NCBI GenBank assembly: GCA_016794825.1
Contig: JAEUJH010000672.1
Span: 1 to 45,698, forward strand
Direction of reading: 5' to 3'
Origin: Gemmatimonadota bacterium
GTDB lineage: Bacteria; Gemmatimonadota; Gemmatimonadetes; Gemmatimonadales; GWC2-71-9
DNA: 45,698 nt
The position numbers were made by a program, and so were the translations under genes. Every line of letters begins with the position of its first letter. Position 1 is the stretch's first letter. Shown here piece after piece: positions 12,775-37,202 of the stretch. Under the pieces are notes generated by a model that did not search any database, was not told where the DNA came from, and saw nothing but the letters and a program-made list of their open reading frames with translations.

Positions 12775-12965
12775 GGTGGTGCTTACGGCTCCTCGCGGGC
12801 AGGCGTTTCGAACGGCCGGGGTTTGAGCCACCCCATTCTAGGCGGAGCCCCGGTATCCCGTAAGTTCGACCCGGTCCGAGGCGGGGGTCAAGCGGACCCG
12901 GCCCGGTCACGTCGTGGTCACGGCCGATCGTCAGGTTGGGAGCGGCCTCAACCCCGGAGGGCTCC

Positions 12966-13915: not shown

Positions 13916-14554
13916 GTGAAACTCGTCACAAAGTCTCTCGAGCGGGCCTTTTTCGGACTGACCGACCCATTCGTTGCCTGGCTGATCCGCAATCAGGTCA
14001 GGCCGAACACCCTGACCACCATCGGTGCCCTGTTGGTGGTGGTGTCGGCGGTGGCCTTTGCCTTCGGCTGGATTCGGTGGGGCGGCGGGCTGCTCCTGCT
14101 GTCCGGCGTGGTCGATACTTTCGACGGCCAGGTCGCGCGCAAGACGGGGCAGGTATCGAAGTTCGGCGCGTTCTACGATTCCACGCTCGACCGCGTCGGC
14201 GACGGGGCGACGTTCATCGGGATCGCGGCCTACCTGCTCAAGGCCCCCGGGGTCCCGTTCCGGATCGAGACCGCCGTGGTCTGCATGGTGGCGGTGCTGA
14301 GTTCGCTGCTGGTGTCGTACGCCCGGGCCCGGGCCGAAGGGCTCGGGCTCGACTGCAAGGTCGGCATCGTGCAGCGGGCGGAACGGCTGCTCGCGCTCGG
14401 AGTACCGTCGGTTCTGGTGGGCGCGGGGCCGAACGGCATCGTGCTGCAGGTCATCGCCGTGGTGCTGGCGATCCTGTCGTCGATCACGGTGGTGCAGCGG
14501 TTCGTGTACGTCTATCAGGTGACGGAAGGCTCGGGCGCCGACAAGCCGCAGTGA
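13916..14554 (+). CDS. CDP-alcohol phosphatidyltransferase (phosphatidylinositol-phosphate synthase-like)
   Basis: GTG start. Full CDP-OH-P motif DTFDGQVARKTGQVSKFGAFYDSTLDRVGD (aa 67-96). About six hydrophobic segments in 212 aa. It sits directly upstream of the MIPS gene. Confidence 0.85.
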   Translation: MKLVTKSLERAFFGLTDPFVAWLIRNQVRPNTLTTIGALLVVVSAVAFAFGWIRWGGGLLLLSGVVDTFDGQVARKTGQVSKFGAFYDSTLDRVGDGATFIGIAAYLLKAPGVPFRIETAVVCMVAVLSSLLVSYARARAEGLGLDCKVGIVQRAERLLALGVPSVLVGAGPNGIVLQVIAVVLAILSSITVVQRFVYVYQVTEGSGADKPQ

Positions 14555-14620
14555 GGCCGGCGGCCCGTGCCGACGATGGCAACACGATGGCGCGGGAAAG
14601 TCTCGCGTCGTTCGACAACT

Positions 14621-14626
14621 AAGGAG
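14621..14626 (+). promoter_or_regulatory. Shine-Dalgarno sequence AAGGAG for the MIPS gene
   Basis: AAGGAG lies 5 nt upstream of GTG 14632. It is the strongest SD I see in the window. Confidence 0.5.
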
Positions 14627-14631
14627 ATCTC

Positions 14632-15963
14632 GTGGCTCAAGGAACTGCTCGTCCGATCGCCCCGGCGAACGGCAAGTTGGGAGTACTCTGCGTCGGATTG
14701 GGCGCCGTCGCGTCGACGTTCATCGCGGGCGTCGAGAACGTCCGGCGGGGCCGGGCGCAGGCCACCGGTTCGCTGACCCAGCTCGCCACCATTCGGCTCG
14801 GCAAACGGACCGACAAGCGGTCGCCGCTCATCAAGGATTTCGTCCCGCTCGCCAAACTCGAGGATCTGGTGTTCGGGGCCTGGGACCCGGTCCCGGACGA
14901 CTGCTATCAGTCGTGCCTCCACTGCGGCGTGCTCGACAAGCACGAGCACGTCGAGCCGATCGCCGATTTCCTCAAGACCATCAAGCCGATGCCGGCCGCC
15001 TTCGACCAGCACTACGTCAAGCGGCTCCAGGGCACCAACGTCAAGACCGGCACCAAGCGGCAGCAGGCCGAGGCGCTCCGGAAGGACATCCGGGACTTCA
15101 AGGCCAAGCATGGCTGCGATCGGTTGGTGATGGTCTGGTGCGCGTCGACGGAAATCTTCATCGCGCCCGGCGCCACCCATCAGTCGCTCGAGGCCTTCGA
15201 GAAGGCCATGGACGCCAACGACCCCTCGATCGCGCCCTCGATGCTGTACGCCTGGGCCTCGGTCATGGAGGGCGTGCCCTTCGCCAACGGCGCTCCGAAC
15301 CTGAGCTGCGACTTCCCGGCCCTCGAGGAACTCGCCAAGAAGAAGAAGGTCGCGATCGGCGGGAAGGACTTCAAGACCGGTCAGACCATGCTCAAGACCG
15401 TGCTCTCGCCGATGTTCAAGGCGCGGATGCTCGGCGTGTCGGGCTGGTACTCGACCAACATCCTCGGCAACCGGGACGGCGAGGTGCTCGACGATCCGGA
15501 GAGCTTCAAGACCAAGGAAGAGTCGAAGCTGGGCGTGCTGGAGCACATCCTCCAGCCCGAGTTGTATCCGAACCTCTACGGCAAGCTCTACCACAAGGTC
15601 CGGATCAACTACTATCCGCCCCGCGGCGACAACAAGGAGGGCTGGGACAACATCGACATCTTCGGATGGCTCGGCTATCCGATGCAGATCAAGGTCGATT
15701 TCCTCTGCCGCGACTCCATCCTGGCCGCGCCGCTGGTCCTCGATCTGGCCCTCTTCTTCGACCTGGCGCAGCGGGCCGGCATGCCGGGCGTCCAGGAGTG
15801 GCTCTCGTTCTACTTCAAGAGCCCCCAGACCGCTCCCGGGCTGTACCCGGAGCACGATCTGTTCATCCAGCAGACCAAGCTCAAGAACACCCTCCGCTAC
15901 CTGATGGGCGAGGAGCAGATCACCCATCTGGGCGTCGAGTACTACGAGTACGACAAGGAGTAG
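14632..15963 (+). CDS. ino1: myo-inositol-1-phosphate (inositol-3-phosphate) synthase
   Basis: 443 aa. N-terminal Rossmann segment GVLCVGLGAVAST. Conserved blocks NGAPNL, SGWYSTNILGNRDG, DNKEGWDNIDIFGWLGYPMQIKVDFLCRDSILAAPLVLDL. Confidence 0.9.
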   Translation: MAQGTARPIAPANGKLGVLCVGLGAVASTFIAGVENVRRGRAQATGSLTQLATIRLGKRTDKRSPLIKDFVPLAKLEDLVFGAWDPVPDDCYQSCLHCGVLDKHEHVEPIADFLKTIKPMPAAFDQHYVKRLQGTNVKTGTKRQQAEALRKDIRDFKAKHGCDRLVMVWCASTEIFIAPGATHQSLEAFEKAMDANDPSIAPSMLYAWASVMEGVPFANGAPNLSCDFPALEELAKKKKVAIGGKDFKTGQTMLKTVLSPMFKARMLGVSGWYSTNILGNRDGEVLDDPESFKTKEESKLGVLEHILQPELYPNLYGKLYHKVRINYYPPRGDNKEGWDNIDIFGWLGYPMQIKVDFLCRDSILAAPLVLDLALFFDLAQRAGMPGVQEWLSFYFKSPQTAPGLYPEHDLFIQQTKLKNTLRYLMGEEQITHLGVEYYEYDKE

Positions 15964-20861: not shown

Positions 20862-21641
20862 ATGACACACGAGGCAGAAGACGAGGCCCCCGTGGTGGCC
20901 ACCACCTTTCGCGACGTGGTGGTGATCGGGGGCGGCTGCTACGGGACGTTCTACGCCGGCCAGCTCCACGAAGCCCGTGCCCGGGGCAAGGCCGACTTCC
21001 GCTCCGTCCTCGTGGTCGATCGCGACCCGGCCTGCCAGGCGGTCCGCGAAGGGCGTCTGGGCGAGCGCGTCGAACTGGTGGTGGCCGACTGGAGCGCCTT
21101 CCTCGACGCCTTTCTCGAGCGCCCGGCGCCGGCCCCGGGCCAGCCGGACGACGCCATCGTCCCCTCGCCGTTGATGCCGCACCTGATGGCTCAGTGGCTC
21201 GAACGAACCGCCAGCCGACTCGCCCCGAGTCGGCACCCCCGGCCGGTGCCCGCCGAGCGTCCCCTCGGCACGCCCTACGACGTCCTGGCGCCCGACGGGA
21301 CCCGCTATGTCTCGTTTGCCGACTGGCTCTGTCCCACCCATTGCATCGAGCCCGCCATCTGCCCGGTCATTCGGGCGCCCCGGACCTGGGAAATGGGCGA
21401 TGCCCTGGAGCACTACGTCCAGCGGGCCGATCGGCGGCGCCCGACGCTCGGCCCCGCCTTGTTCGTCACCCGCCACCGCGCGTTCGGCGTCGGGATGTTC
21501 GACGTGGCCGAGGCGCGAGCCGCCCGCGCGGTCGTGGAGCAGGCCGTCGCCCGACCGGACCCGGTCGAGGTGGTGGTGGCGACCATTTCCTCCTGCCACG
21601 GCGCGGTTGGGGTGTTGCGATTCGACCCGGCGACGGGCTGA
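20862..21641 (+). CDS. hypothetical dinucleotide-binding (Rossmann-like) protein with a Cys cluster
   Basis: DVVVIGGGCYGTFYAGQL followed by SVLVVDRD is a GxGxxG plus acidic beta2 end. CPTHCIEPAICP (C-x3-C-x6-C) plus a distal SSCHG. GC3-rich, with GGAGGTGAGG upstream of the ATG. Family not recognised. Confidence 0.65.
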   Translation: MTHEAEDEAPVVATTFRDVVVIGGGCYGTFYAGQLHEARARGKADFRSVLVVDRDPACQAVREGRLGERVELVVADWSAFLDAFLERPAPAPGQPDDAIVPSPLMPHLMAQWLERTASRLAPSRHPRPVPAERPLGTPYDVLAPDGTRYVSFADWLCPTHCIEPAICPVIRAPRTWEMGDALEHYVQRADRRRPTLGPALFVTRHRAFGVGMFDVAEARAARAVVEQAVARPDPVEVVVATISSCHGAVGVLRFDPATG

Positions 21642-21671
21642 CCCGCCGGAGACCCGATCGGCCCGTGCTCC

Positions 21672-22190
21672 TCAGAGGACCAGGGCCAGCACCGTCAGGG
21701 CGGCGATGCACTGGCCCGCGAGGACATCGCCGGGGTAGTGGACCCCGAGCATCACCCGGCTCCAACCGACCAGCAGGCCGATGGTGACGAGCGGAAGGGT
21801 CAGGGCGGGGAACGCCGTCGCGTAGGCCAGGGCCACGGCCAGGCTCGAGGCGGAGTGTCCGGATGGGAACGAGAACCGATCGGGATTGGCGATCGTGGCT
21901 CGGCCCGGGTGCGCGGTCGACGGTCTTGGCCGCCCGATGAGCCGCTTGGCGACCTGGATGACCAGGTGCGAGATGACCAGCGCCAGCGCCGCCCTGATGG
22001 AGACGTCCCGGGGCCAGGGTTCGAGCGCGAGTGGAAGGGTCACGGCGGCGATGGTGACGACCGCGCTGCCGAGGGCCGTGATGCCGATCCAGACCCGGCG
22101 GCGGATTCGAGAGCCCTCGGAGCCGAGCGACCAGCGGAGAAAGAGATCCCGATCGCGGCGGTCGAGGCGGTGGAGCAGGCTGGCGCGCAT
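21672..22190 (-). CDS. PAP2 family lipid phosphatase
   Basis: ATG 22190 inside track ORF 21672..22274. Canonical C1/C2/C3 motifs KRLIGRPRP, PSGHS, SRVMLGVHYPGD. Several TM segments. Confidence 0.8.
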   Translation of the reverse strand: MRASLLHRLDRRDRDLFLRWSLGSEGSRIRRRVWIGITALGSAVVTIAAVTLPLALEPWPRDVSIRAALALVISHLVIQVAKRLIGRPRPSTAHPGRATIANPDRFSFPSGHSASSLAVALAYATAFPALTLPLVTIGLLVGWSRVMLGVHYPGDVLAGQCIAALTVLALVL

Positions 22191-22291
22191 GGCGGACCCC
22201 CGGGTCCAGGAGACGGGGTAAAGGTCGGGGACGGTCGTTAGGCCCCGGCCACGGGCCGGTCTCGATCGAGTCACGAGGCCTCCGGACCGAT

Positions 22292-22309
22292 CCGTGACCG
22301 GAGCCTAAC
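22292..22309 (+). promoter_or_regulatory. composite cis-element CCGTGACCGG-a-GCCTAAC upstream of GT4-A
   Basis: The 10-mer at 22292..22301 ends 40 nt before ATG 22342. The same 10-mer in the same gene-relative orientation lies 33 nt before GTG 25916 and 41 nt before ATG 30135 (minus strand). A GTTAGGC/GCCTAAC word adjoins it in all three places. Confidence 0.45.
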
Positions 22310-22341
22310 GTCATCGTGACGGCGGCCGGCCATCGTTCGGG

Positions 22342-23565
22342 ATGCGCGCCCTCTATTTCAGCGATACCTATCCCCCCCAGGTCAACGGCGTCTCCGTCGT
22401 CACCGAACTGTCCGTGGCCGGTCTGCTCGACCGCGGCTGGGACGTCGGGCTGGTCACGCCCCGGTACCCCGGCGGGCCAGGCGTGTTCGGTCGGGCCGCC
22501 GGGCAGTCGCTGCTGGAACTGCCCGCGCGGCCCTGCCCGGGCTATCCCGAAATCCAGCTGGCAGCCCCCCGGTTCGTGAAGGCGCTCGGGGCGGCTCGGC
22601 GGTTCCGCCCCGACCTGATCCACTGCGCCACCGAATTCTCCACCGGTTGGGTCGGTCAGTGGGTCGCCCGCCGGCTCGGCGTGCCGGTCGTCACCTCCTA
22701 TCACACCGACTTCGGCCGCTACATGGAGGCGTACGGGGTTCCCTGGCTCCGGTCGCCGGTGACCCGGTTCCTGACCGGCTTCCATCGGCGGGCCCGCCGG
22801 ACTCTGACGCCGTCGCGGGTCACCCGCACCGAGCTGGTGGAGCGGGGCATCGAACGAGCGATGGTCTGGGGTTGCGGGGTCGACGCGGTCCGGTTCGCGC
22901 CGGGGCGGCGCTCGGAGGAGCGGCGCCGGGCCCTCGGCGTCGACGGCCGGTTCCTGTTCCTTCATGTCGGTCGGCTCGCGCCCGAAAAGGGGGTCGACCG
23001 GATCCTGGCCGCGTTTGGGCGGTGCCGGGCCGTCCTGGGCGACCGGGTCCAGCTGATCATCGCCGGCGACGGTCCGGCCCGCGAGGAGCTGGCCCGCCTG
23101 GCGCCACCCGGCGTCACCCTGCTCGGTTACCTCGACCGCCACGTCGACCTGCCGGAGCTCTACGCCAGCGCCGACGCCTTCCTCTTCGCCTCCGAAACGG
23201 AGACCCTCGGGCTCGTCATCCTCGAGGCCATGGCCAGCGGGTTGCCCGTGGTCGCCGCCCCGGCGGGAGGGGTGGCGGATCACCTCGAGCACGGCGTCAA
23301 CGGCCTGGCGTTCGCGCCCGGTGATGGGGAGGCGATGACCCGCTTCATGATCGAGCTGGTGGAGCATCCCCCGTTCCGGAACGCGCTCGCCGACGGGGCC
23401 CGCCGGACCGCCGAACGGCTCTCGTGGGATCTCGAGCTCGACCGGCTCGATCGCTGCTACCGGGAGGTGTTGGCCGAGGGCGCCGGGGCCGTCGCGGCGA
23501 CGGCCGAGTTGCCGGAACGATCCGATCGATCGATGATTCCGGCGGCTCCCACCCCTCCGGCATGA
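22342..23565 (+). CDS. GT4 family glycosyltransferase (lipid-directed MgtA/PimB/SqdX-like), GT4-A
   Basis: MRALYFSDTYPPQVNGVS N-terminus. GRLAPEKG, and a C-terminal ETLGLVILEAMASGLPVVA...E motif (EX7E). Confidence 0.85.
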   Translation: MRALYFSDTYPPQVNGVSVVTELSVAGLLDRGWDVGLVTPRYPGGPGVFGRAAGQSLLELPARPCPGYPEIQLAAPRFVKALGAARRFRPDLIHCATEFSTGWVGQWVARRLGVPVVTSYHTDFGRYMEAYGVPWLRSPVTRFLTGFHRRARRTLTPSRVTRTELVERGIERAMVWGCGVDAVRFAPGRRSEERRRALGVDGRFLFLHVGRLAPEKGVDRILAAFGRCRAVLGDRVQLIIAGDGPAREELARLAPPGVTLLGYLDRHVDLPELYASADAFLFASETETLGLVILEAMASGLPVVAAPAGGVADHLEHGVNGLAFAPGDGEAMTRFMIELVEHPPFRNALADGARRTAERLSWDLELDRLDRCYREVLAEGAGAVAATAELPERSDRSMIPAAPTPPA

Positions 23566-24182
23566 CCGATTCGACCGGCTTCATTCACCTTCATCACCCG
23601 CCCCCGGAAGGGGAAACCCGCTACCTGCTCCTGCTCCACGGCACCGGGGGCGACGAGCACGACATGGTGTCGCTTGGCCGGATCGTCGCGCCCGCGTTCG
23701 GCTACCTGGCGCCCCGCGGCCAGGTTCTCGAGGGCGCCGCGCACCGGTACTTCCGCCGCCTGGCCGAGGGCGTCTTCGACGTTCCCGACCTGAAGCGCCG
23801 CGCCGACCAGCTGGCCGACTGGATCGTTGCCGCCGCCACTCGCTACCGGATCGATCGGACCCGGCTGACGGCGCTGGGATTCTCCAACGGCGCCAACATC
23901 GCGAGCGCCATGCTGTTTCAGCGCCCCGAGGCCTTCGGCGACGCGGTCCTGCTCCGCCCGATGGTGCCGTTCGAGCCGGATCCGGGTGACCTCGGGGGGC
24001 GTCGGATCCTCGCGCTGGGCGGAAGCCTGGACCCCATCACTCCGACCGAGCACCTCGACCGGCTGACGACCCTGTTGGCGGAACGGGGCGCCACGGTCGA
24101 CGCCCGCGTCGTCCCGGCCGGGCACGGCCTCGTCCGCGCCGACCTCGAGGCCGTGGCCAGCTGGCTGCAACGGACCCCCTGA
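23562..24182 (+). CDS. phospholipase/carboxylesterase family alpha/beta hydrolase
   Basis: The ATG overlaps the GT4-A stop (ATGA). LLLLHGTGGDEHD, nucleophile elbow GFSNGA, and a distal D and H (PAGHG). Confidence 0.8.
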   Translation: MTDSTGFIHLHHPPPEGETRYLLLLHGTGGDEHDMVSLGRIVAPAFGYLAPRGQVLEGAAHRYFRRLAEGVFDVPDLKRRADQLADWIVAAATRYRIDRTRLTALGFSNGANIASAMLFQRPEAFGDAVLLRPMVPFEPDPGDLGGRRILALGGSLDPITPTEHLDRLTTLLAERGATVDARVVPAGHGLVRADLEAVASWLQRTP

Positions 24183-24216
24183 GGAACTCGGCCCCGGCCG
24201 GCACACTACTATATTT

Positions 24217-24233
24217 GGGCCCGCTTCGGGCCC
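24217..24233 (+). terminator. GC hairpin after the esterase gene / in the trxB leader (function uncertain)
   Basis: GGGCCCG-ctt-CGGGCCC is preceded by the only AT-rich patch of this gap (TATATT, 24210..24215). There is no downstream U-tract, so it could equally be a 5'-UTR hairpin of a trxB transcript. Confidence 0.3.
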
Positions 24234-24275
24234 CCGGTCGCGGGGCGACGGACCTCTGAGGAGATTGCGCCGATC

Positions 24276-25217
24276 ATGGATCGATTCGATGTCATCATCG
24301 TGGGCGCCGGCCCGGCGGGCCTGTGCGCCGCGATGTATGCCGGGCGGGGAATGTTGAACGCCGTCGTGCTCGAACGCGGCATCCCCGGCGGGGAGTTGCT
24401 CAACACGGAAAAGATCGAGGACTATCCGGGGTTCGAGTCGATCCTCGGCCCCGAGCTCGCCACCCGGATGACCGATCACGCCAAGAAGTTCGGCGCCGAC
24501 ATCCGGATGGAGAACGTCGAGGGCATCCACCCGCAACCCGGCGGTGGGTTCCGGGTCACCACCAGTTCGGGGGCCGAGTTCGAGGCTCCCACGGTCATCC
24601 TCACCGCAGGTGGGACGCCCACCAAGCTCGGGGTGCCCGGCGAGGCCGAGTACGCCGGGCGGGGCGTGTCGTACTGCGCGGTCTGCGACGGCGCCTTCTT
24701 CAAGGGCGAGCAGATCGCGGTCATCGGTGGCGGCGACGCGGCCGTCGAGGAGGCGGACTACCTGACCCGCTACGCCTCCAAGGTCACCATCGTGCACCGC
24801 CGCGATGCCTTCCGGGCCTCGAAGGTCGTCCAGGAACGGGCCCTCCGGAACCCGAAGATCGAGGTGCTCTGGAACAAGAAGGTCCTCGAAATGGTCGGCG
24901 ACCCGACCGGTTTGAAGCGGCTGGACCTCGAGGACACCGTCACCGGCGCCCGCTCCGAGCTGGCCGCGACCGGCGCGTTCGTGTTCATCGGCTTTACGCC
25001 CAACAGCGGGCTGGTCAAGGCGCACATCAACCACGACCCGTCGGGGTATCTCCTCACCGACGACCGGATGATGACCTCGATCCCCGGGCTGTTCGCCGCC
25101 GGCGACCTCCGGGTCCAGTTGACCCGTCAGGTCACCACCGCCGTCGGCGACGCGACCACCGCGGCCATTGCCGTCGAGAAGTACCTCACCGAACTCAAGA
25201 GCCGAGCGGCGGTCTGA
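24276..25217 (+). CDS. trxB: thioredoxin-disulfide reductase
   Basis: 313 aa. FAD motif IIVGAGPAGL, redox-active CAVCDG, NADPH motif VIGGGDAAVEEA, C-terminal GLFAAGD. Confidence 0.9.
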   Translation: MDRFDVIIVGAGPAGLCAAMYAGRGMLNAVVLERGIPGGELLNTEKIEDYPGFESILGPELATRMTDHAKKFGADIRMENVEGIHPQPGGGFRVTTSSGAEFEAPTVILTAGGTPTKLGVPGEAEYAGRGVSYCAVCDGAFFKGEQIAVIGGGDAAVEEADYLTRYASKVTIVHRRDAFRASKVVQERALRNPKIEVLWNKKVLEMVGDPTGLKRLDLEDTVTGARSELAATGAFVFIGFTPNSGLVKAHINHDPSGYLLTDDRMMTSIPGLFAAGDLRVQLTRQVTTAVGDATTAAIAVEKYLTELKSRAAV

Positions 25218-25220
25218 TCG

Positions 25221-25856
25221 ATGGCTCCGCTCCGGATCGTCACGATCCCGAACGGCCAGTTCCAGGAGAACTGCTACCTGCTGGCGGAAGCGGGCTCCAC
25301 CGACGCGGTGATCGTGGATCCCGGCGAGGAGCCCGAGCTCTTCCTGGCCACGGCGGAACGGGAAGGCCTCCAGATCCGGGAAATCTGGCTCACCCACGCG
25401 CACCTCGACCATGTCGTCGGCGTCGCCGACATCAAGGCCGCCACCGGCGCGCCGATCTTCCTCCACCCCGCTGACGAACCCCTCTACCGGAACCTTCCCC
25501 AGCAGGGGCTCTGGTTCGGCCTCCGCCTGTCGGCGCCGCCGCCGGTCGACCGACAACTGAGCCACGGCGGGAGCCTCACCCTCGGGTCGACGGTGTTCCA
25601 GGTGCGGCACACCCCCGGACACTCGGCCGGCAGCGTCTGTTTCATCACCGACGGCATCGTCATCGGCGGCGACGTCCTGTTCCAGGGCTCGATCGGCCGG
25701 ACCGACCTTCCGGGCGGGAACTTCGAGCGCCTGATCCAGTCGATCCGGGACGAGCTGCTGCCTCTGCCGGACGCCACCGTGGTCTACTCGGGGCATGGCC
25801 CCGCCACGACCGTCGGCGCCGAGCGCCGTGGTAACCCGTTCCTCGTGGAGGCGTGA
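25221..25856 (+). CDS. MBL-fold metallo-hydrolase (hydroxyacylglutathione hydrolase-like)
   Basis: THAHLDHVVG (HxHxDH), HTPGHS, GDVLF..GRTD. Starts 3 nt after the trxB stop. Confidence 0.85.
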   Translation: MAPLRIVTIPNGQFQENCYLLAEAGSTDAVIVDPGEEPELFLATAEREGLQIREIWLTHAHLDHVVGVADIKAATGAPIFLHPADEPLYRNLPQQGLWFGLRLSAPPPVDRQLSHGGSLTLGSTVFQVRHTPGHSAGSVCFITDGIVIGGDVLFQGSIGRTDLPGGNFERLIQSIRDELLPLPDATVVYSGHGPATTVGAERRGNPFLVEA

Positions 25857-25859
25857 CCT

Positions 25860-25882
25860 GTTAGGCACGAAGCCGTGACCGG
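25860..25882 (+). promoter_or_regulatory. composite cis-element GTTAGGC-n6-CCGTGACCGG upstream of GT4-B
   Basis: See element 22292..22309. The 10-mer at 25873..25882 ends 33 nt before GTG 25916. Extra CGTGAC(C) copies lie at 25852 and 25915. Confidence 0.45.
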
Positions 25883-25915
25883 GAGGAGGGGCGGCCGCCG
25901 CTAGCTTGTCAGTCC

Positions 25916-27178
25916 GTGACGAGGCTCACCGCCCTTCCGACCCTCTCGTCCGGAGCCGCTTCGGCGGATCGCTCCGGGGCCGAATTGCCCCCCCGCCTCA
26001 GACCGCACGCCCGCCTCGGCGTCCTCGACGTCACCAAGTACTTCGGCACCACCAGCGGCGGGATCAAGACCTATCTCCTGGAAAAGGCCCGCTTCGTGGC
26101 CGTCCGTCCGGAGCTTCGTCAGATCATGGTGGTTCCCGGGCCCGCCGACCGGGTCGATACCCGGAACGGGTCCCGGATCTACGCGCTTCGCGGGCCCCGG
26201 ATCCCGGCCAATCCCCCCTACCGATTCCTGCTTGCCACGCGGTCATTCCGGCGGATCGTCGAACACGAGCGGCCCGACGTCATCGAGGTCGGCAGTCCAT
26301 TTCTGGTGCCCTGGTTGAGCCGGCTGGCCAATCGGCGCCACGAAGCGCCGATGGTCTGGTACTACCATACCAACGTTCCCCGTCTGGTCGGTCCCGAGTT
26401 CGGATTGGCGCGGACTCGGGGGCTCGCGACGGCGGCGCTCGAGCGCTATGTCCGGTTCCTGGGGCGCCGGTTTCCGGTGGTCATCTGCGCCTCCGACTAC
26501 GCCGCGGCCGAACTCCACGGCTGCGGGGTCGAGCGAGTCGTCCGGGTCCCGTTAGGCGTCGACACGATCACGTTCCACCCCCGGCGGCGCGAGTGGGCAT
26601 CGGAGACGAGGGCGGTCCACGGCCTCCCGGACGGCCCCCTGGCCATCTACGCCGGCCGGTTCGCGGCCGAAAAGCGGCTCGATGTCGTCCTGGACGCGTG
26701 GGCCGAGGTGGAGCGGCGGAGTCGGATGCGGCTTGCCCTGGTCGGCGCCGGCCCGGACGAGGCCCGCCTTCGGGCTCACCCGTATGCCGCCCGGGTCACC
26801 TGGCTCCCGTACCAACGGGAGCGGGATCGGCTGGCCGACCTCCTGGCGGCCGCCGACGTGGCGGTTGCTCCGGGTCCCTCCGAGACGTTCGGGCTGGCGG
26901 TTCTCGAGAGCCTCGCGTCCGGCACCCCGGTCCTGTCCGTGGACGCCGGCGGCGCGGGCGAACTGGCGTTCCGGTCCAGAGCTGGAGAGCGCTACCGCGA
27001 TGGAGACGTCGGCCATCTCGCCCAGGCGGCGGTCTGGCTGGCGCGCCAGAACCTCCCGTTTCTCGGGGAGCGGGCTCGTCGCTACGCCGAGGCCGAGCAT
27101 TCGTGGGACGCCGTGTTCGCGGCCCTGTTCGAGGTCTACAGAGGCGTCACCAGTGGTTCGTGGCCGGAGCCCCGATGA
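25916..27178 (+). CDS. GT4 family glycosyltransferase, GT4-B
   Basis: GTG start. GRFAAEKR, and a C-terminal SETFGLAVLESLASGTPVLS (EX7E-like). The N-terminal half differs from GT4-A and GT4-C. Confidence 0.8.
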   Translation: MTRLTALPTLSSGAASADRSGAELPPRLRPHARLGVLDVTKYFGTTSGGIKTYLLEKARFVAVRPELRQIMVVPGPADRVDTRNGSRIYALRGPRIPANPPYRFLLATRSFRRIVEHERPDVIEVGSPFLVPWLSRLANRRHEAPMVWYYHTNVPRLVGPEFGLARTRGLATAALERYVRFLGRRFPVVICASDYAAAELHGCGVERVVRVPLGVDTITFHPRRREWASETRAVHGLPDGPLAIYAGRFAAEKRLDVVLDAWAEVERRSRMRLALVGAGPDEARLRAHPYAARVTWLPYQRERDRLADLLAAADVAVAPGPSETFGLAVLESLASGTPVLSVDAGGAGELAFRSRAGERYRDGDVGHLAQAAVWLARQNLPFLGERARRYAEAEHSWDAVFAALFEVYRGVTSGSWPEPR

Positions 27179-28038
27179 CGATTGGCCTGGCGGGCCACGT
27201 TGCCGCGGTTGGCCTGGTTGGCCTCGATCTCGCGGCCCGCACGGAACGGCTCCGCCTCCTGCTCGGCGCCGCCGGTCAGCGGATTGCGGGCGGCGAGGCG
27301 TTCCGGGCCAACCTCCTGGCCGATTTCGGATCGGCGATCACGCCGATGCGGGTTGGCGGCGAGCCAGCCCGGGCGGCGGGACTTCGGATGGCCGGTGTGT
27401 CCTGGCCGCGCGTCGTCGCCGCCCTCGCGACCGAGGTGGCCGTGGCGGCTCCGGTCACCGTGGGGGTTGGTGTCGGCCTGCTCGCTGCCTTTGGGGGCCA
27501 ATGGTGGCGGGACGCGGGTCTGCGGGTCCGGCAATCACCGGGGTCGATCGGCTCCTGGGTCGCGATGGTCGTCGTGGTGGCCGGATTGGCGTGGTGGGTC
27601 AGGCGCCGTTGGGCCGGACATGGGGGAGGGTCCGTGGCGGTGGCCGCCCCGGGCTCGGTCGCGGATTGCCCGGCGCCGAGCCGGCCCGGACTCGCCGGCG
27701 GTGCCCGGATCGCGGGCGTCGCGGCGCTGCTCTCGGCCGTCAATGTCCTCTGCCGGGTCTCGATTCTCCCGGTGCTGGCTTGGAGCGCCGGCGACACCAC
27801 CGCGATTGGAACGCTCGCGGTCGGCGCGTTCCTGCTGATCTATGGTCAGCTGGTGACCCCGTCGCCAGCCGGGGTCGGGATGGTCGACGCGGCGTTCCTG
27901 GCGGGCGGCGCGGGCGCGACCGACCTCGGGCTGCTCCTCGCGTGGCGCTTCTACACCACCGGCGTCGGGGCGGGGTTGGGGGGGCTGGTGGCGGCCACCC
28001 GCTTGAGCCAGCTTCGGCTGGGTCGACGCGAACGTTAG
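27175..28038 (+). CDS. UPF0104 / lysyl-PG-synthase-TM-type (flippase-like) membrane protein
   Basis: ATG 27175 overlaps the GT4-B stop (ATGA). About 8 hydrophobic segments with Gly/Ala-rich TM helices. Family call is by eye from the topology, the PMRVGGEPARAAGL-type loop, and its GT-coupled context. Confidence 0.65.
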   Translation: MTIGLAGHVAAVGLVGLDLAARTERLRLLLGAAGQRIAGGEAFRANLLADFGSAITPMRVGGEPARAAGLRMAGVSWPRVVAALATEVAVAAPVTVGVGVGLLAAFGGQWWRDAGLRVRQSPGSIGSWVAMVVVVAGLAWWVRRRWAGHGGGSVAVAAPGSVADCPAPSRPGLAGGARIAGVAALLSAVNVLCRVSILPVLAWSAGDTTAIGTLAVGAFLLIYGQLVTPSPAGVGMVDAAFLAGGAGATDLGLLLAWRFYTTGVGAGLGGLVAATRLSQLRLGRRER

Positions 28039-29180
28039 GCGGCCCTGGCCGGCCGGCCGGCGGCTGCCGCCTCGGCGTACGACCCAACCAGCTGGTCGTA
28101 GATCGGTCCCCAGGCCCGTCCCAGCGCCGTGGTCCGGGCCGCCTTGGCCAGGTTGCGGCGGAGGGCCGCATCGCCGAGCAGGCGGTCGAGCGCGTCGCGG
28201 AACGCGCCCGGGTCCACCGGGTCGGCAAGCAGGGCGTTGACCCCGTCCACTCCGAACTCGCCGATGCCGCCCGCGTTCATCGCGACCGGCGCCACACCGG
28301 CCGCCATCGCCTCCAGGGTCACGTTGCCGAAGGTCTCCGTCACCGACGGCATCGCGAAGACGTCGGCCGAAGCGTAGGCGGTCGCGAGGTCGATGCCTCG
28401 TTTCATTCCCGTCAGGTGGACTCTCGGCAGGGCCCGGCGCCGGATCGCCGGCTCCATCAGGCCCTGGCCGGTGAACACCAGGTGGGAGCGGGGGTATCGG
28501 GGGGCGAGGGACTCCCACGCGTCGAGCAGCCGTTCCACTCCCTTTTCCGGGGCGATCCGGCCGACGTAGCCGACCAGGAGGTCGTCGGGGCCGATCCCGA
28601 GATCCGATCGGTACCGGGCCGAGCGGAACGACGGCGAGAACTGGTCGGCGTCGACTCCCCGGGTCCAGATCCCGGTGTGCTCGATCCCCCGGCTCCGAAG
28701 GTGTCGTTCGAACGAGGCGCTGGGCGCCAGCACCCGATGCGCGTGCCGGTAGAACCACCGGAGGTAGATCCACCCGGCCCCGACGGCCCAGCGCATCCCG
28801 TAGCGTCCAGCGTAGCGCTCGTAGTCGGTGTGCGCCGACGCGATGATCGGCGCCCCGATGGCCCGGGCCGCGCGGAGGCCGGCGTAGCCCATCGCGAACT
28901 CCGTCGCCAGGTGAACCACGTCCGGTCGGAAGCGAGCGAGATCCGCGGTGATCTCGTCCTGGTCCGGCGCGGCCCACTGCACCTCCGGCGAGAGGAAGAA
29001 CGTACGCCCCGCGCTCCGGTGCACCTCCGGCCGATCCGCCGCGCCGCCGAGCGGGTAGGCCGCGGAGTAGACCCGGAGCTGGTGGCCGCGCCGCATCAGC
29101 GCATCGGCGGTCCGCGTCAACGTGGTCGAGACGCCACTGACCATCGGCCAGTACACCTCGGAGAAGATGGCGATTCGCAT
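28035..29180 (-). CDS. GT4 family glycosyltransferase, GT4-C (paralogue of GT4-A)
   Basis: ATG 29180 gives MRIAIFSEVYWPMVSGVS. HLATEFAMGY..HTDYERY..GRIAPEKG..ETFGNVTLEAMAAGVAPVA is colinear with GT4-A. Confidence 0.85.
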   Translation of the reverse strand: MRIAIFSEVYWPMVSGVSTTLTRTADALMRRGHQLRVYSAAYPLGGAADRPEVHRSAGRTFFLSPEVQWAAPDQDEITADLARFRPDVVHLATEFAMGYAGLRAARAIGAPIIASAHTDYERYAGRYGMRWAVGAGWIYLRWFYRHAHRVLAPSASFERHLRSRGIEHTGIWTRGVDADQFSPSFRSARYRSDLGIGPDDLLVGYVGRIAPEKGVERLLDAWESLAPRYPRSHLVFTGQGLMEPAIRRRALPRVHLTGMKRGIDLATAYASADVFAMPSVTETFGNVTLEAMAAGVAPVAMNAGGIGEFGVDGVNALLADPVDPGAFRDALDRLLGDAALRRNLAKAARTTALGRAWGPIYDQLVGSYAEAAAAGRPARAA

Positions 29181-29193
29181 CGAGTCGCTCCGG

Positions 29194-30135
29194 TCAGGTG
29201 GCTTCGGGCAGGCCCGACGGCAGCAGGACCGAATGCGGCTGCCGCTGGCGAACCAGCCCGGTAAGGGACGGGACCACGACCGCCTGGAGGAAACCGGCCA
29301 CCACGAGGCCGGCGACCGTGTCGATCGCGAAGTGGTTCTGGGTATAGACCGTCGCCAATGCAATCAGGCCCGCGAGCACGGTGACCAGGGAGGCAATCCC
29401 CGGCCGCCCGATCCGCCACGCGATCCACGCGAACGTGACCGCGCCGACCGTGTGGGAACTCGGAAACGCGGTGCCGAGCGAATCGCCCGCCGATCGGAGC
29501 CCGAGGTTGAGTTGATAGAAGTAGCCCGAGGTGAGGTCACCCTGGTAAATCGGCCACAGTTCCCGAGGACCGACCACCGGGAAGTACGAGTAGATCAGGA
29601 AGCAGCCCAGATACGACACCGCGATCCGCAGCACGACCTCCCGGCGGATTGCCAGATCTCGTCCGGCCAACAGGACGAGCGGAATCGCCGCCAGCATCAG
29701 GTAGTAAGTGAAGTAGGCCCCTTGCATCACCTCGCTCATCGCCGTCGACGGCATCGTCTCCACCCAGCTCAGGTTGAGGTGGGTTCCGAAGAGCTGGAGG
29801 TCCCACCCCGCCACCAGGGGATCGTTGATCGGCTCGGGCAGCAGGTCGTGGCGGAGACCCAACTCGCTCCAGAACATCGCCGTCCACAACAAGGGATACG
29901 TCTCCCGTAGCCCGGCCGTGACCTGGCTCAGGGGAGCCTGGACCCGGCGCAGCAGCCAGGGGAGTGCGAGCGCGCCGAGATGCACGGCGGCGAACCAGCG
30001 GGCGGAGGGGAGGCGGGGGACGAGGGGAAGCCAGGAACAGAGGAGGAGGACGTTGACCAGGGCCACCCAGCGATCGACGGGCAGCAGGGCCTCGGAATCC
30101 CGCATCGGCGCTCTCGGTTCGAGTCGCCGTAACAT
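29194..30135 (-). CDS. polytopic PAP2-superfamily protein, Aur1/Ipt1-like (PAP2_3-type) candidate phospho-headgroup transferase
   Basis: 313 aa with about 8 TM segments. C2/C3-like motifs FPSSHT and YTQNHFAIDTVAG, with no KxxxxxxRP C1 motif. Its stop lies 13 nt upstream of the GT4-C start. Confidence 0.7.
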   Translation of the reverse strand: MLRRLEPRAPMRDSEALLPVDRWVALVNVLLLCSWLPLVPRLPSARWFAAVHLGALALPWLLRRVQAPLSQVTAGLRETYPLLWTAMFWSELGLRHDLLPEPINDPLVAGWDLQLFGTHLNLSWVETMPSTAMSEVMQGAYFTYYLMLAAIPLVLLAGRDLAIRREVVLRIAVSYLGCFLIYSYFPVVGPRELWPIYQGDLTSGYFYQLNLGLRSAGDSLGTAFPSSHTVGAVTFAWIAWRIGRPGIASLVTVLAGLIALATVYTQNHFAIDTVAGLVVAGFLQAVVVPSLTGLVRQRQPHSVLLPSGLPEAT

Positions 30136-30176
30136 GGGGGTCGAATGCCTCGGGCCGACGACCGGTCGGTCACCAG

Positions 30177-30217
30177 CCGGTCACGGGGCGGTGGCGATAC
30201 GGCGTCGACGGTTAGGC
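30177..30217 (-). promoter_or_regulatory. composite cis-element (GCCTAAC-n24-CCGTGACCGG on the gene strand) upstream of the PAP2_3/GT4-C operon
   Basis: The plus strand reads CCGGTCACGG at 30177..30186 and GTTAGGC at 30211..30217. On the minus strand the 10-mer ends 41 nt before ATG 30135. Confidence 0.45.
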
Positions 30218-30257
30218 AGGTCTGGGGTCGCGGGGGGCTGGGTCGCCGTCGCCCCCG

Positions 30258-30581
30258 TCAGGGCGGCGGGGCCATGCCGATCATCATGATCGTCCGCTCG
30301 AGCGCCGCCGCCACCCCGTGGGGCACGTCGGCGGGCGCCCAGACCACCTGGCCGGGCCCGGCGTCGAACCGGTCGTCGCCGACGATCATGCTCGCCTTTC
30401 CCGAGACGATCAGATAGAATTTGTCCGCGCCTCGATGGGCGTGGACCGGTTGGGACTGACCCGGCTCGAAGCAGTTGAGTCCCAGGAACAACTGCGTGCC
30501 CCGAACCAGGTCGGTCTTGGTGGCCTTGTCGGCCGAGAATCGGCCCGCCGCGGCGGGGTCCAGCAGATACCCACTCGTCAT
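30258..30581 (-). CDS. cupin domain protein
   Basis: ATG 30581 is preceded by GGAG at -9..-6. G(X)5HxH-like PVHAHRGADKFYLIVSG, and a second motif GQVVWAPADVPHGV. Confidence 0.75.
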   Translation of the reverse strand: MTSGYLLDPAAAGRFSADKATKTDLVRGTQLFLGLNCFEPGQSQPVHAHRGADKFYLIVSGKASMIVGDDRFDAGPGQVVWAPADVPHGVAAALERTIMMIGMAPPP

Positions 30582-30615
30582 CCGATCTCCGATCTCTTTC
30601 CCCGACGAGACGGCC

Positions 30616-32034
30616 ATGTCGTACCGCATCGAGCAGGATCCCCTCGGCGAACGGCAGGTGCCGGCCGCCGCGCTGTACGGGATCCAGACCCAGAGGGCCG
30701 TCGAGAACTTCCCGATCTCAGGTCTTCGCCCGCTGCCGGTCTTCGTCGACGCGGTCATCTGGATCAAGCGGTCGGCCGCCGAGACCCATCGTCAGACCGG
30801 TCGCCTGGAACCGCGCCTGGCCGACGCGATCATCGCTGCGGCCGACGAAATCCTCGCCGGCCAGCATCGCGAGCAGTTCGTCGTCGATGTCTACCAGGCC
30901 GGCGCCGGGACCTCCCACAACATGAACTGCAACGAGGTCCTCGCCAACCGCGCCAACGAGATCCTTGGCGGCCGGCGGGGAACCTACGCGCCGATCCATC
31001 CCAACGATCACGTCAACATGGCGCAAAGCACCAACGACGTGATCCCGACGGCGCTGCGCCTTGCCGCGCTGGCCACGCTGCCGAACCTGCTCGACGCGGT
31101 CGGCGGGCTGGCCGCCACCCTGGCGGCCAAGGGCCGAGCGTTCGACCATATCGTCAAGTCGGGCCGCACCCATCTCCAGGACGCGACCCCCATCCGACTC
31201 GGCCAGGAGTTTGCCGCCTGGGGACGCACCCTCGCTCGCCACCACGCCAAACTGGTCGAGGCCGCCCGCTGGCTCCAGCCCCTGCCGATCGGCGGGACCG
31301 CGGTCGGGACGGGCCTCAATGCCGAGCCCGATTATCCGCGCCTCATGGTCGACCGGCTCCGGGCTCTGACGGGGCTCGATGTGGCCCTGGCCGACGACCG
31401 GATCGAGCTGATGCAGTCGATGGGCGACGTCGCGACGATGTCCGGTGCGATCCGCGCCTGTGCCCTCGACCTCAACAAGATCGCCAACGACATCCGGCTC
31501 CTCGCCTCCGGCCCGCGGACCGGTCTCGCCGAAATCGTGCTGCCCGCCGTGCAGCCCGGGTCGAGCATCATGCCGGGCAAGGTCAATCCGTCGATCGCCG
31601 AGATGGTCAACCAGGTCTGCTTCCAGGTCCTCGGCCTCGATGCCACGGTGGCCCTGGCGGCCGAGGCGGGGCAGCTCGAGCTCAATGTGATGATGCCGGT
31701 CATTGCCCACAACCTGCTCTTCGGGATGACGATCCTGGCCAATGCCATCCGGCAGTTCGATCGGGCCTGCGTGGCGGGCATCGAGGCCGACGAGCGGCAG
31801 TCCGCTCATTGGCTCGAGCGGAGCCCGGCATTGGTCACGGCGCTCGCGCCCAAGATCGGCTACGCGGAAGCGGCCAAGCTGGCCAAGGAGGCGCTGGCCA
31901 CGGGGCTTTCGGTCAGGGAACTGGTCGTGAGCCGGGGGCTGTTGCAGGGCAGGGAACTGGACGAGATCCTCGACTTGCGAGCCATGACGGAACCGGGCGT
32001 GCCGGGCGGTCGCCCGCTGCCGGGTGGCGGGTGA
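30616..32034 (+). CDS. aspA: aspartate ammonia-lyase (class II fumarase/aspartase superfamily)
   Basis: MSYRIEQDPLGERQVP start. GTSHNMNCNEVLANRA, QSTNDVIPTA (aspartase-like rather than the QSSND of FumC), and signature GSSIMPGKVNP. Confidence 0.8.
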   Translation: MSYRIEQDPLGERQVPAAALYGIQTQRAVENFPISGLRPLPVFVDAVIWIKRSAAETHRQTGRLEPRLADAIIAAADEILAGQHREQFVVDVYQAGAGTSHNMNCNEVLANRANEILGGRRGTYAPIHPNDHVNMAQSTNDVIPTALRLAALATLPNLLDAVGGLAATLAAKGRAFDHIVKSGRTHLQDATPIRLGQEFAAWGRTLARHHAKLVEAARWLQPLPIGGTAVGTGLNAEPDYPRLMVDRLRALTGLDVALADDRIELMQSMGDVATMSGAIRACALDLNKIANDIRLLASGPRTGLAEIVLPAVQPGSSIMPGKVNPSIAEMVNQVCFQVLGLDATVALAAEAGQLELNVMMPVIAHNLLFGMTILANAIRQFDRACVAGIEADERQSAHWLERSPALVTALAPKIGYAEAAKLAKEALATGLSVRELVVSRGLLQGRELDEILDLRAMTEPGVPGGRPLPGGG

Positions 32035-36737: not shown

Positions 36738-37202
36738 ATGCGCATCACGACCTGGACCGAATACAGTCTGATCATTTCGATCCACTTGGCCAAACGGGGC
36801 CGCCGGGGTGCTTCTCCGGTGGCGGCCCGAGAACTGGCCGAAGTCGAACGCCTCCCCGCCGACTACGTCGAGCAGATCCTGCTCCGGCTCCGCCGGGCCG
36901 GCATCGTCGAGAGCGTGCGCGGTGCCAAGGGCGGGTACTTCCTGGCCCGGGAGCCCGGCCTGATCACGGTGCGCGACGTGATGGCCGCCTCCGAACACCA
37001 GACGTTCGAAATGAACTGCGACACCCATCCGGTGGACGCGGACCGGTGCTCCCCGAGCAGTGCCTGCGCCATTCGACCGGTCTGGCAGGGGCTGCAGCGC
37101 CGGATCGACGATTTCCTCGGCAGCGTCCCCCTGACCGAGCTGCTCCGCGACGAGCCCGGCCCGGAGTTGGTCCCGCTCACCTCGTCGCCGGCGTCGTCCT
37201 GA
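36738..37202 (+). CDS. Rrf2 family transcriptional regulator
   Basis: MRITTWTEYSLIISIHLAK...ELAEVERLPADYVEQILLRLRRAGIVESVRGAKGGYFLA is a winged-HTH. Three Cys (C-x9-C-x5-C) sit in the usual cluster-ligand region. This is the terminal part of the artefactual 1101-aa ORF. Confidence 0.85.
   Translation: MRITTWTEYSLIISIHLAKRGRRGASPVAARELAEVERLPADYVEQILLRLRRAGIVESVRGAKGGYFLAREPGLITVRDVMAASEHQTFEMNCDTHPVDADRCSPSSACAIRPVWQGLQRRIDDFLGSVPLTELLRDEPGPELVPLTSSPASS

Follow-up and report, generated by a model that had tools for sequence, protein, structure and literature searches.

Putative Pho-box arrays upstream of PAP2 and GT4 genes, and a dispersed octamer, in a Gemmatimonadota genome fragment

Pho boxes consist of 11-nt direct-repeat units with a species-specific core, which are assembled into simple or complex operators (PMC4415409). 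In Proteobacteria, they precede glycolipid glycosyltransferase operons, and the glycolipids replace phospholipids under phosphate stress (PMC4796936, PMC8528852); the diacylglycerol can be supplied by PlcP or by the dephosphorylation of phosphatidate (PMC4796936). Here, we describe arrays of short direct repeats upstream of two phosphatase genes (PAP2 and PAP2_3) and three GT4 glycosyltransferase genes (GT4-A, GT4-B and GT4-C) on a contig from a Gemmatimonadota bacterium (JAEUJH010000672.1, assembly GCA_016794825.1). The whole stretch that was analysed, 45,698 nucleotides with a G+C content of 70%, is referred to as the window, and loci from other genomes are given L numbers. The original prediction, made from the letters of the window, had noted a 10-mer, CCGTGACCGG, before three transcription units of this gene set, and had suggested that an operator, promoter or leader element common to these units unites them in one regulon. 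On the comparative evidence presented below, we consider it likely that the arrays are Pho boxes that replace the −35 element of short-leader or leaderless promoters, which would place the PAP2 and GT4 genes in the phosphate-starvation (Pho) regulon.

How does this locus compare with the systems already described? PhoB operators classically take the place of the −35 element, with about 10 bp between their end and the −10 hexamer. The Pho box of Escherichia coli (CTGTCAT-N4-CTGTCAT), which is bound head to tail by a winged-helix regulator, resembles the present sites in its 11-bp direct repeats and, as seen in relatives, its location upstream of pstS; its −35 position is predicted for the present sites. 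As in E. coli, the proximal unit lies about 10 nt before the predicted −10 element in the GT4-A and PAP2 promoters and in the GT4-B promoter of the relative L010. However, the core here is CGTGAC/CGTTAC, three to four units are usual, binding is a prediction, the promoters are predicted to be leaderless or nearly so, and the −10-like element differs from TATAAT. The PHO boxes of Streptomyces coelicolor (bound by PhoP, core GTTCACC) share with the arrays a high G+C content, a variable number of 11-nt units, some strong and some degenerate, and an overlap with the core promoter (PMC4415409); the CTTCACC unit of the relatives L011 and L012 is one base away from GTTCACC. Nevertheless, S. coelicolor belongs to a different phylum with a different regulator lineage, and the commonest unit here is CGTGAC. 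CGTGAC and CCTAAC match neither of the published cores CTGTCAT and GTTCACC, only the T, A and C positions being common to all. Because the consensus varies by species (PMC4415409), this mismatch argues against identity of sequence, not of kind. Finally, the PlcP–Agt operons of SAR11, Phaeobacter, Agrobacterium and Pseudomonas aeruginosa place a GT4 glycolipid gene beside an enzyme that supplies diacylglycerol, an arrangement that the adjacent GT4 and PAP2 genes of this locus may share; the operons have Pho boxes upstream and are induced by phosphate limitation (PMC4796936, PMC8528852). In contrast to those operons, the partner genes here are PAP2 and PAP2_3, with no PlcP (metallophosphoesterase phospholipase C) partner, and three GT4 paralogues occur together with an LPG_synthase_TM gene.

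Word arrays in the window and in its relatives

The 10-mer CCGTGACCGG occurs exactly where it had been placed, at 22292–22301 (+), 25873–25882 (+) and 30177–30186 (−), which is 40 nt before the ATG of GT4-A (22342), 33 nt before the GTG of GT4-B (25916) and 41 nt before the ATG of PAP2_3 (30135). All three copies are intergenic, within about 360 nt of gaps, and in sense orientation. They compare with an expectation of 0.61, and none of 100 dinucleotide-preserving shuffles reached three copies. The functional unit, however, is neither the 10-mer itself nor the 10-mer in combination with GTTAGGC: its core, (Y)CGTGAC, is conserved in orthologues, whereas the full 10-mer is not. With one mismatch allowed, the window holds 28 copies of the 10-mer, and the bare hexamer CGTGAC occurs 32 times against about 31 estimated from base composition. 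GC-rich flanks contribute to the 10-nt identity among the copies of this genome. A GTTAGGC or GCCTAAC word does stand beside each copy, at distances of 1, 6 and 24 nt (22303–09, 25860–66 and 30211–17), as the original prediction held, but this word is not specific to the cluster: where 1.27 copies would be expected, the window has 11.

What is conserved is a word of 6 bp (CGTGAC or a variant such as CCTAAC, CGAGAC or GGTGAC) that recurs head to tail at intervals of exactly 11 bp. The GT4-A array (22293–22320, +) comprises CGTGAC at 22293–98, which is the core of the 10-mer, CCTAAC at 22304–09 and CGTGAC at 22315–20, with unit starts at −49, −38 and −27 when counted from the start codon; it is preceded by a fourth, degenerate unit at 22282–87 (+), CCGGAC. 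On the other strand of the same gap, the PAP2 array (22237–22275, −) comprises CGTGAC at 22275–70, CGAGAC at 22264–59, CGTGGC at 22253–48 and CCTAAC at 22242–37. The gap thus contains two opposed arrays, one for each gene, with units starting at 22237/48/59/70 in reverse and at 22293/304/315 in forward orientation. The sharing of the element among three transcription units was rightly recognised, and a fourth promoter, that of PAP2, also has an array, without the exact 10-mer. The GT4-B operator (25852–25879, +) has CGTGAC at 25852–57, overlapping the stop codon of the gene for a metallo-beta-lactamase-fold (MBL-fold) protein, and again at 25874–79 (10-mer core), the two units lying 22 nt apart and starting at −64 and −42. 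GTTAGGC (25860–66) sits between them in the opposite orientation. The PAP2_3/GT4-C operator (30169–30196, −) consists of CGCCAC at 30196–91, CGTGAC at 30185–80 (10-mer core) and GGTGAC at 30174–69, each 11 nt from the next, with starts at −61, −50 and −39; between the end of its last strong unit and the ATG at 30135 there are 33 nt (22 + 11). The GCCTAAC word upstream of it (30211–30217, −) is out of phase, 31 nt before CGTGAC, and recurs at 31 nt in L003 and at 27 nt in L010. The additional CGTGAC copies that had been noted lie at 22315 and 25852, both 22 nt from the 10-mer, and in the PAP2_3 gap GGTGAC lies 11 nt downstream of the 10-mer. Elsewhere in the window, a CGTGAC-N5-CGTGAC pair (12906–12922, −) is located 74 nt upstream, in sense, of a gene for a DUF305/CopM-like metallochaperone (12079–12831, −), a possible further member of the regulon whose two-unit score in the scan described below is within the range of shuffled sequence. 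Other intergenic gaps of the window, among them those before the gene for myo-inositol-1-phosphate synthase (Ino1), the CDP-alcohol transferase gene, the thioredoxin-reductase-like (TrxR-like) gene and aspA, lack the words, so the words are not general promoter elements.

The two opposed arrays of similar words also account for the inverted repeats that had been pointed out in the PAP2/GT4-A gap. The 13-bp inverted repeat is present and extends to 26 nt at 85% complementarity (22236–61 with 22285–310), and the crossing repeat of GTCACGA (22270) and TCGTGAC (22314) is perfectly complementary. As a hairpin, however, the repeat found nil support from covariation; the symmetry arises because similar words face each other in the two arrays. 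Across all reference genomes, five matches to the exact composite CGTGAC-N5-CCTAACG-N4-CGTGA were found, three of them the orthologous site, one in Trueperaceae and one in Planctomycetota. Because there are so few matches, three of them orthologous, we rejected the idea that the composite is a dispersed repeat.

We aligned the PAP2/GT4-A gap of 10 species whose GT4-A proteins are 61–81% identical. The alignment is gapless over the whole 84-bp block; its invariant positions fall into 6-bp words, and the spacers vary freely. In the GT4-A array, GTGAC, CTxAC and GTxA are invariant or nearly so. The reverse-orientation blocks GTTAGG, xxxACG, GTCTCG and GTCACG start at alignment columns 14, 25, 36 and 47 (22237, 22248, 22259 and 22270 in the window), and the forward-orientation blocks are the degenerate unit at 22282, CGTGAC at 22293, CCTAAC at 22304 and CGTGAY at 22315. 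This phasing at one helical turn, maintained without insertions or deletions, suggests recognition by a protein from a single side of the double helix. For the other two gaps, the window can be compared with L003 and L010: all three have a pair of YGTGAC words at a distance of 22 nt before GT4-B, and CCGTGAC-N5-KTGACM before PAP2_3.

The arrangement extends to more distant relatives. Strict double units, C[GT]T[GC]AC-N5-C[GT]T[GC]AC, occur 36 times in 912 kb of Gemmatimonadota loci and not once in the reversed sequence, and nearly all of them are located 40–140 nt upstream of GT4-A orthologues, in sense. Same-strand pairs of C[GT]TNAC peak at a start-to-start distance of 11 both in the GT4-A loci (69 pairs against 1 in the reversed-sequence control) and in the pstS loci introduced below (93 against 0), with echoes at distances of 22 and 33. 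Orthologues that are 52–57% identical maintain the arrangement with variant words, for example CGTGAC-N5-CTTCAC-N5-CGTCAC, CGTGAC-N5-CGTCAC-N5-GGTGAC and TGTGAC-N5-CGTAAC-N5-TCTCAC, from which it follows that the CCTAAC of this clade occupies a unit position. Words, spacing and orientation are therefore conserved upstream of GT4-A orthologues across the Gemmatimonadales, as a shared regulon would lead one to expect, but only the core of the 10-mer is.

A degenerate three-unit pattern searched in all genomes was of no use for finding the regulon, the matches listed being swamped by Actinomycetota; three of the matches listed were from Gemmatimonas, two of them before GT4-A and one before a gene for a pentapeptide-repeat protein. 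In a Trueperaceae metagenome-assembled genome (MAG) of the Deinococcota (L082, 5633–5715), a run of 11-nt units, CGTGAC, CCTAAC, CCTGAC and CGTAAC, lies upstream of an sdhC-like gene; a second phylum may thus have regulator sites of this type. In L014, a CGTCAC-N5-CGTCAC pair (8102–8118) is located 43 nt upstream of a gene for a Fur-family regulator; a cross-link between phosphate and metal regulation is possible at this site.

The same words upstream of phosphate genes

What protein might read such arrays? A further double unit was noted before ppk1 in L075. The pstS loci of 80 Gemmatimonadaceae genomes were fetched, and the 170 nt upstream of pstS were counted in 76. In about 60 of these 76 genomes, the same words, with the same spacing and orientation, precede pstS, pstC or porin genes. 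An unbiased hexamer count of the pstS upstream regions returned CGTTAC in 43 of the 76 (3.3 expected), CGTGAC in 39 (8.1 expected) and GTGACA in 34 (2.8 expected). The recurrent site is [CT]GTGAC-N5-C[GT]T[TA]AC, for example CGTGACAATCTCGTTAC. With one start-codon assignment, the slightly wider pattern [CT]GT[GA]AC-N5-C[GT]T[TA]AC is present within 170 nt upstream of pstS in 46 of the 76 genomes, and CGTGAC is the commonest first unit, leading 34 of the 46 sites. When 73 copies were assigned to their downstream genes, 50 lay before pstS, seven before pstC and four before porin-like genes; the rest were mostly copies before pstS for which the filter on open reading frames had failed. In L282, the gene directly upstream of pstS encodes a response regulator (Response_reg and Trans_reg_C domains) and is accompanied by a histidine kinase gene. 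The position of the motif before pstS, together with this adjacent pair of a PhoB-like regulator and a histidine kinase, indicates that the motif before the pst genes is probably the Pho box of this lineage, and its core word, spacing and orientation are the same as those in the window.

The GT4-A gene is also physically linked to phosphate genes. Its 80 best relatives are all from Gemmatimonadota MAGs, the closest being 81% identical, and in 20 of these 80 loci pstS/C/A, phoB/R, ppk1 or ppx lies within 6 kb. In several loci, phoR and phoB follow GT4-A immediately. One Gemmatimonadaceae locus (L075, 1–12630) has the gene order ppk1, ppx, GT4-A, pstB, pstB, pstA, pstC, pstS, with operator units before ppk1, GT4-A and pstS; this makes it a compact phosphate island.

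A transfer test connects the two sets of sites. A matrix for a 10-nt unit was built from the pstS sites of other genomes only, and the window and 30 shuffles of it were scanned for units 11 nt apart. The top four three-unit matches, at 22293+ (17.2), 22275− (7.0), 25852+ (6.0) and 30196− (5.9), are the four cluster promoters, each in sense to its downstream gene; the maximum in shuffled sequence averaged 1.9 and never exceeded 9.9. With two units, the top five matches are the cluster gaps and the gap before the DUF305/CopM-like gene, at 12922, which scored best (12.1), followed by the PAP2_3 gap. The lower scores are singly not significant, but their location in about 360 nt of 45.7 kb is. In the same scan, the Metallophos gene of the window (4854–6371) had no array.

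A phylum survey describes pstSCAB, phoR–phoB and ppk as widespread (PMC10581226); a term search of that source returned no mention of glycolipids or competence, and no Pho box surfaced for it in our literature search. Nor did that search find any description of a Gemmatimonadota Pho box, of its lipid targets or of promoters or regulons in this phylum. Thus, we found no earlier report of a Pho-box consensus of the CGTGAC type, whereas the type of regulation is itself known.

Promoter geometry, mechanism and alternatives

In GT4-A orthologues (L011–L078), the last unit ends 21–27 nt before the start codon. This gap holds about 10 bp, a hexamer and 5–7 nt, with no room for a ribosome-binding site. 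In the window, the predicted −10-like hexamer of GT4-A is CATCGT (22331–22336, +), separated by 10 nt from the last unit and by 5 nt from the ATG. It has the form nAnnnT, in which all 10 species share the A (A108 of the alignment) and the T (T112). Because no ribosome-binding site fits and the hexamer sits 5 nt before the ATG, this geometry suggests that the GT4-A mRNA is leaderless or nearly so. For PAP2, a conserved block, (C/G)AnC(G/T)T, on the minus strand of the alignment leads us to infer a −10-like hexamer, GACCTT (22221–22226, −), 10 nt after the proximal unit, which would leave a leader of about 24 nt to the ATG at 22190. The predicted hexamer of GT4-B is TAGCTT (25902–25907, +), 8 nt before the GTG at 25916, and TAGSYT-N8-GTG is present in the window, L003 and L010. 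The GT4-B promoter of L010 is shorter by about one 11-nt unit, and its last unit therefore ends 10 nt before TAGCTT. Readings by eye as sigma-70 promoters (−35/17 bp/−10) or ECF-type promoters (GAAC-N16-CGT) were dropped, their spacings being inconsistent across orthologues. We also observed −10-like elements resembling TAnnTTTG or TA(A/G)CTTTC, namely TATATTTG before the TrxR-like gene (24210–24217) and TAGCTT before GT4-B, as well as TATCTT, TAACTTTC and TAGCTTTC before pstS (L217–L265); Gemmatimonadota promoters may be of the Bacteroidota −10 type.

We therefore propose the following model. The 10-mer would be one unit, with its GC-rich flanks, of a Pho-box-type operator made up of two to four 6-bp words with the consensus CGTGAC, repeated head to tail every 11 bp and thus all on one side of the helix. 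The tolerated variants would include CCTAAC, CGAGAC and GGTGAC and, in relatives, CGTCAC, CTTCAC, CGTTAC and TGTAAC. The binding protein would be a response regulator of the OmpR/PhoB family, most likely the PhoB orthologue phosphorylated by PhoR at low phosphate, and it would bind as a head-to-tail oligomer. With some 10 bp between the array, in place of a −35 element, and a weak −10-like hexamer, the bound regulator would recruit RNA polymerase and so activate rather than repress. Four promoters would be wired in this way: those of PAP2, of GT4-A with the hydrolase gene that follows it, of GT4-B with LPG_synthase_TM and of PAP2_3 with GT4-C. The PAP2 phosphatases would release diacylglycerol and phosphate, the GT4 enzymes would glycosylate the lipid to give phosphorus-free glycolipids, and the output would be the remodelling of lipids under phosphate starvation. 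In this model, the words with their phasing, orientation and conservation, their identity with the motif before the pst genes and the linkage to pho genes are observed, and the regulator, the activation, the −10 hexamers, the start sites and the lipid chemistry are deduced.

Several observations weigh against this model. The phosphate link comes from other families of the phylum, not from the genome to which the window belongs, and CCTAAC, a unit of the arrays in this clade, does not occur among the pstS training boxes. In the transfer test, three of the four three-unit scores (5.9–7.0) are below the shuffle maximum of 9.9, and the two-unit scores of 10.5–12.1 fall within the shuffle range (mean maximum 10.4). 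The regulator next to pstS in L282 has PhoB as its best NCBIfam match, at 228 bits against an equivalog cut-off of 296. The overlap of the arrays with the core promoter would be compatible with a repressor, too. Furthermore, thin metatranscriptome contigs cover 22259–22559 and 22291–22493, whereas transcripts of GT4-A that begin at the ATG would not be expected to reach so far upstream; carry-over of DNA or read-through is a possible source, and these low-depth Logan contigs, having neither strand nor ends, cannot place a start site. Lastly, the arrays before the CopM-like and Fur-like genes precede genes that are not classical Pho targets.

This last point would also suit a different transcription factor, either another OmpR-family regulator, for instance of envelope or metal stress, or a dimeric helix-turn-helix protein reading CGTTAGG-N4-CCTAACG, in control of a small lipid regulon independent of phosphate. 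An 11-bp repeat architecture is common to many OmpR-family regulators. The L075 locus has TGTAAC-N5-TGTAAC as its pstS box but CGTGAC units before GT4-A. As for the dimeric protein, CGTTAGG-N4-CCTAACG is a perfect 18-bp palindrome in L003, L004, L006 and L007, and the PAP2/GT4-A gap of L010 has a cluster of five CGTTAGG/CCTAACG words in about 100 nt, both of which could mark a second protein; in the window, however, the palindrome is degenerate, its second arm being GCCACGG. Against another regulator of either kind, CGTGAC is the leading word of the pstS boxes and also precedes pstC, porin genes and ppk1, and the GT4-A array of L049 contains CGTTAC, the typical second unit of pstS boxes. Moreover, GT4-A repeatedly adjoins phoBR and pst genes, and the gene calls and Pfam families of the window include no regulator gene in or adjoining the cluster. 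We regard this explanation as unlikely.

The proposal of a leader element can be taken further, to a structured RNA (a riboswitch or attenuator) in which an outer stem, CGUUAGG/CCUAACG, and an inner one, GUCACG/CGUGAC, control GT4-A through alternative pairings. The 26-nt inverted repeat and the perfect 7-nt repeat do exist, RNA-derived contigs extend over 22259–22341, and RNAalifold recovers both stems in the 10 species at −14.4 kcal/mol, with a change from U-A to C-G at one pair in two sequences and from G-C to C-G at another in one. Yet with a covariation term of 0.06 and hardly any variation in the pairs, conservation of the arms is at the level of sequence rather than of pairing. The supposed loops contain the conserved hexamers GTCTCG and xxxACG, and the 11-nt spacing is free of insertions and deletions; folding needs neither. 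The GT4-B and PAP2_3 gaps use the same words but cannot form the stems, distant orthologues retain direct repeats only, the words upstream of pstS are likewise direct repeats, and Rfam gave no match at E up to 1 over 21500–30800. A leader of this kind is very improbable, the more so because the arrays sit where the −35 element of a short-leader or leaderless transcript would be.

That there is no dedicated element, the words being chance in GC-rich gaps or general promoter words of the −35 type (GTGACA resembles TTGACA, L003 has TTGACA at a unit position, and one-mismatch 10-mers and bare hexamers are as common as stated above), is contradicted by the comparative counts and can be considered excluded, given the three exact 10-mers in sense in so few nucleotides of gap, the strict double units confined to few gene families, the promoters of Ino1, the CDP-alcohol transferase gene, the TrxR-like gene and aspA without the words, and a spacing to any −10-like hexamer unlike that of a 17-bp sigma-70 promoter.

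The dispersed octamer, the gene neighbourhood and wider meaning

The Pho-box interpretation does not account for the abundance of the octamer CGTTAGGC, which is a separate and more unusual phenomenon; some but not all GTTAGGC words serve as array units. No 8-mer of the window is more over-represented than CGTTAGGC (eight copies against 0.26 expected), which is also the top 8-mer of the loci of clade A (23 against 1.4). In the window, it occurs at 2001–08 (−), 22236–43, 22303–10 (−), 26550–57, 28033–40, 34880–87, 38360–67 (−) and 44045–52. The copy at 26550–57 (+) encodes CCG-TTA-GGC (Pro-Leu-Gly) inside GT4-B, and in that at 28033–40 the stop codons of LPG_synthase_TM (TAG) and GT4-C (TAA) overlap inside the word, which recurs at the same convergent junction in L003 (6690) and L010 (8748). 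In the genome fragments sampled, the octamer is very dense in some other Gemmatimonadaceae, where 6 kb may contain as many as 10 copies, and most others lack it. The dense loci, which include L249, L283, L022, L041 and L216, have one copy per 0.6–1 kb. The copies have no conserved flanks, and about 40% of them are non-coding. The top 8-mers of other loci, in contrast, stem from tandem repeats of local extent or from repeats in proteins and are not dispersed.

The coding copies of CGTTAGGC show a peculiar codon pattern. They are mostly on the sense strand, and 58 of the 84 read nCG-TTA-GGC, that is, Ala/Pro/Thr/Ser-Leu-Gly. In the dense loci, 23 of 45 such tripeptides (xLG) use TTA, a codon that makes up 36 of 1750 leucine codons there, whereas none of 161 do so in genomes that lack the octamer. 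Three of the at most seven TTA codons of the window lie inside CGTTAGGC, in GT4-B, an MFS gene and pyrD. A conversion rate per reading frame was confounded by antisense shadow reading frames and was disregarded. The codon pattern is indicative of selection or drive at the DNA level. HIP1 and DNA uptake sequences are dispersed, lineage-specific, hyper-abundant words that are kept in genes through codon choice (PMC5861425, PMC4390886, PMC1939737). Like HIP1 of cyanobacteria (GCGATCGC) and the uptake sequences of Neisseriaceae and Pasteurellaceae, CGTTAGGC is dispersed in coding and non-coding DNA and maintained by codon choice; it differs in not being palindromic and in having no known association with a methyltransferase, a competence system or an uptake bias. 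A literature search for CGTTAGGC returned primer noise only. Tentatively, and with more doubt than confidence, we suggest that CGTTAGGC is an undescribed genome-wide DNA signal of some Gemmatimonadota, similar to HIP1 or to an uptake sequence, which selection or molecular drive would maintain with enough force to rewrite about half of the Ala/Pro/Thr/Ser-Leu-Gly tripeptides with the otherwise rarely used TTA and of which GTTAGGC copies would have settled at Pho-box units. They might have done so because CCTAAC keeps the T, A and C of the xxTxAC core common to all units; at the same unit positions, more distant orthologues have CTGAC, CTTCAC or CGTCAT.

The genes themselves, with calls taken from the source contigs and families from Pfam and NCBIfam, are arranged as follows. 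The PAP2-family lipid phosphatase gene (21672–22190, −; Pfam PAP2, E = 5.5e-21) diverges from GT4-A (22342–23565, +), a pairing kept in many loci; an identical GT4-A is present in the MAG GCA_033763235.1. The end of GT4-A is overlapped by an alpha/beta-hydrolase gene of the phospholipase/carboxylesterase family (23562–24182, +), and the TrxR-like gene and then the MBL-fold gene lie between this hydrolase gene and GT4-B (25916–27178, +). A gene for the membrane protein LPG_synthase_TM (27175–28038, +) lies 3′ of GT4-B. GT4-C (28035–29180, −) forms one minus-strand unit with PAP2_3 (29194–30135, −), whose ATG is retained in L003, and a small cupin gene and then aspA lie beyond. Among the NCBIfam models, those of GlcNAc-phosphatidylglycerol synthase and monoglucosyl-diacylglycerol synthase come closest to the three GT4 proteins; because the matches fall below the cut-offs of both, the label of a glycolipid cluster is reasonable but unproven.

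The block from GT4-B through LPG_synthase_TM, GT4-C and PAP2_3 to the cupin gene (25857–30615) is missing between the MBL-fold gene and aspA in L006, L008 and L009; judging from this comparison, it is a variable insertion that carried in its own operators. Genes for a CDP-alcohol phosphatidyltransferase and Ino1 lie side by side at 13916–15963, which suggests the synthesis of an inositol phospholipid; the pair has no operator units upstream. The sole transcription factor gene seen in the window, for an Rrf2-family regulator (36738–37202), lies ahead of a ThiF/rhodanese (MoeB-like) gene. A further 7.4 kb of the genome beyond the window contains ribosomal genes and one further copy of GCCTAACG, and no array.

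The bacterium is one of activated-sludge and biofilm metagenomes, and the runs that contain the sequence are metagenomes of sludge, wastewater and biofilm. Gemmatimonadota are abundant in soil and wastewater, few of them have been cultured, and the first Gemmatimonas was isolated from an enhanced biological phosphorus removal setting. If correct, a Pho-box model of CGTGAC-N5-CGTTAC, with three or four units every 11 bp, would enable the prediction of the regulon in hundreds of Gemmatimonadota MAGs. The model would also assign a conserved set of PAP2 and GT4 genes to phosphate-sparing lipid remodelling, which is relevant to phosphorus cycling and to enhanced biological phosphorus removal. The octamer CGTTAGGC would offer a clean example of selection at the DNA level overriding codon usage in a high-GC genome and, should it turn out to be a signal for uptake, recombination or methylation, would add a new member to a rare class.

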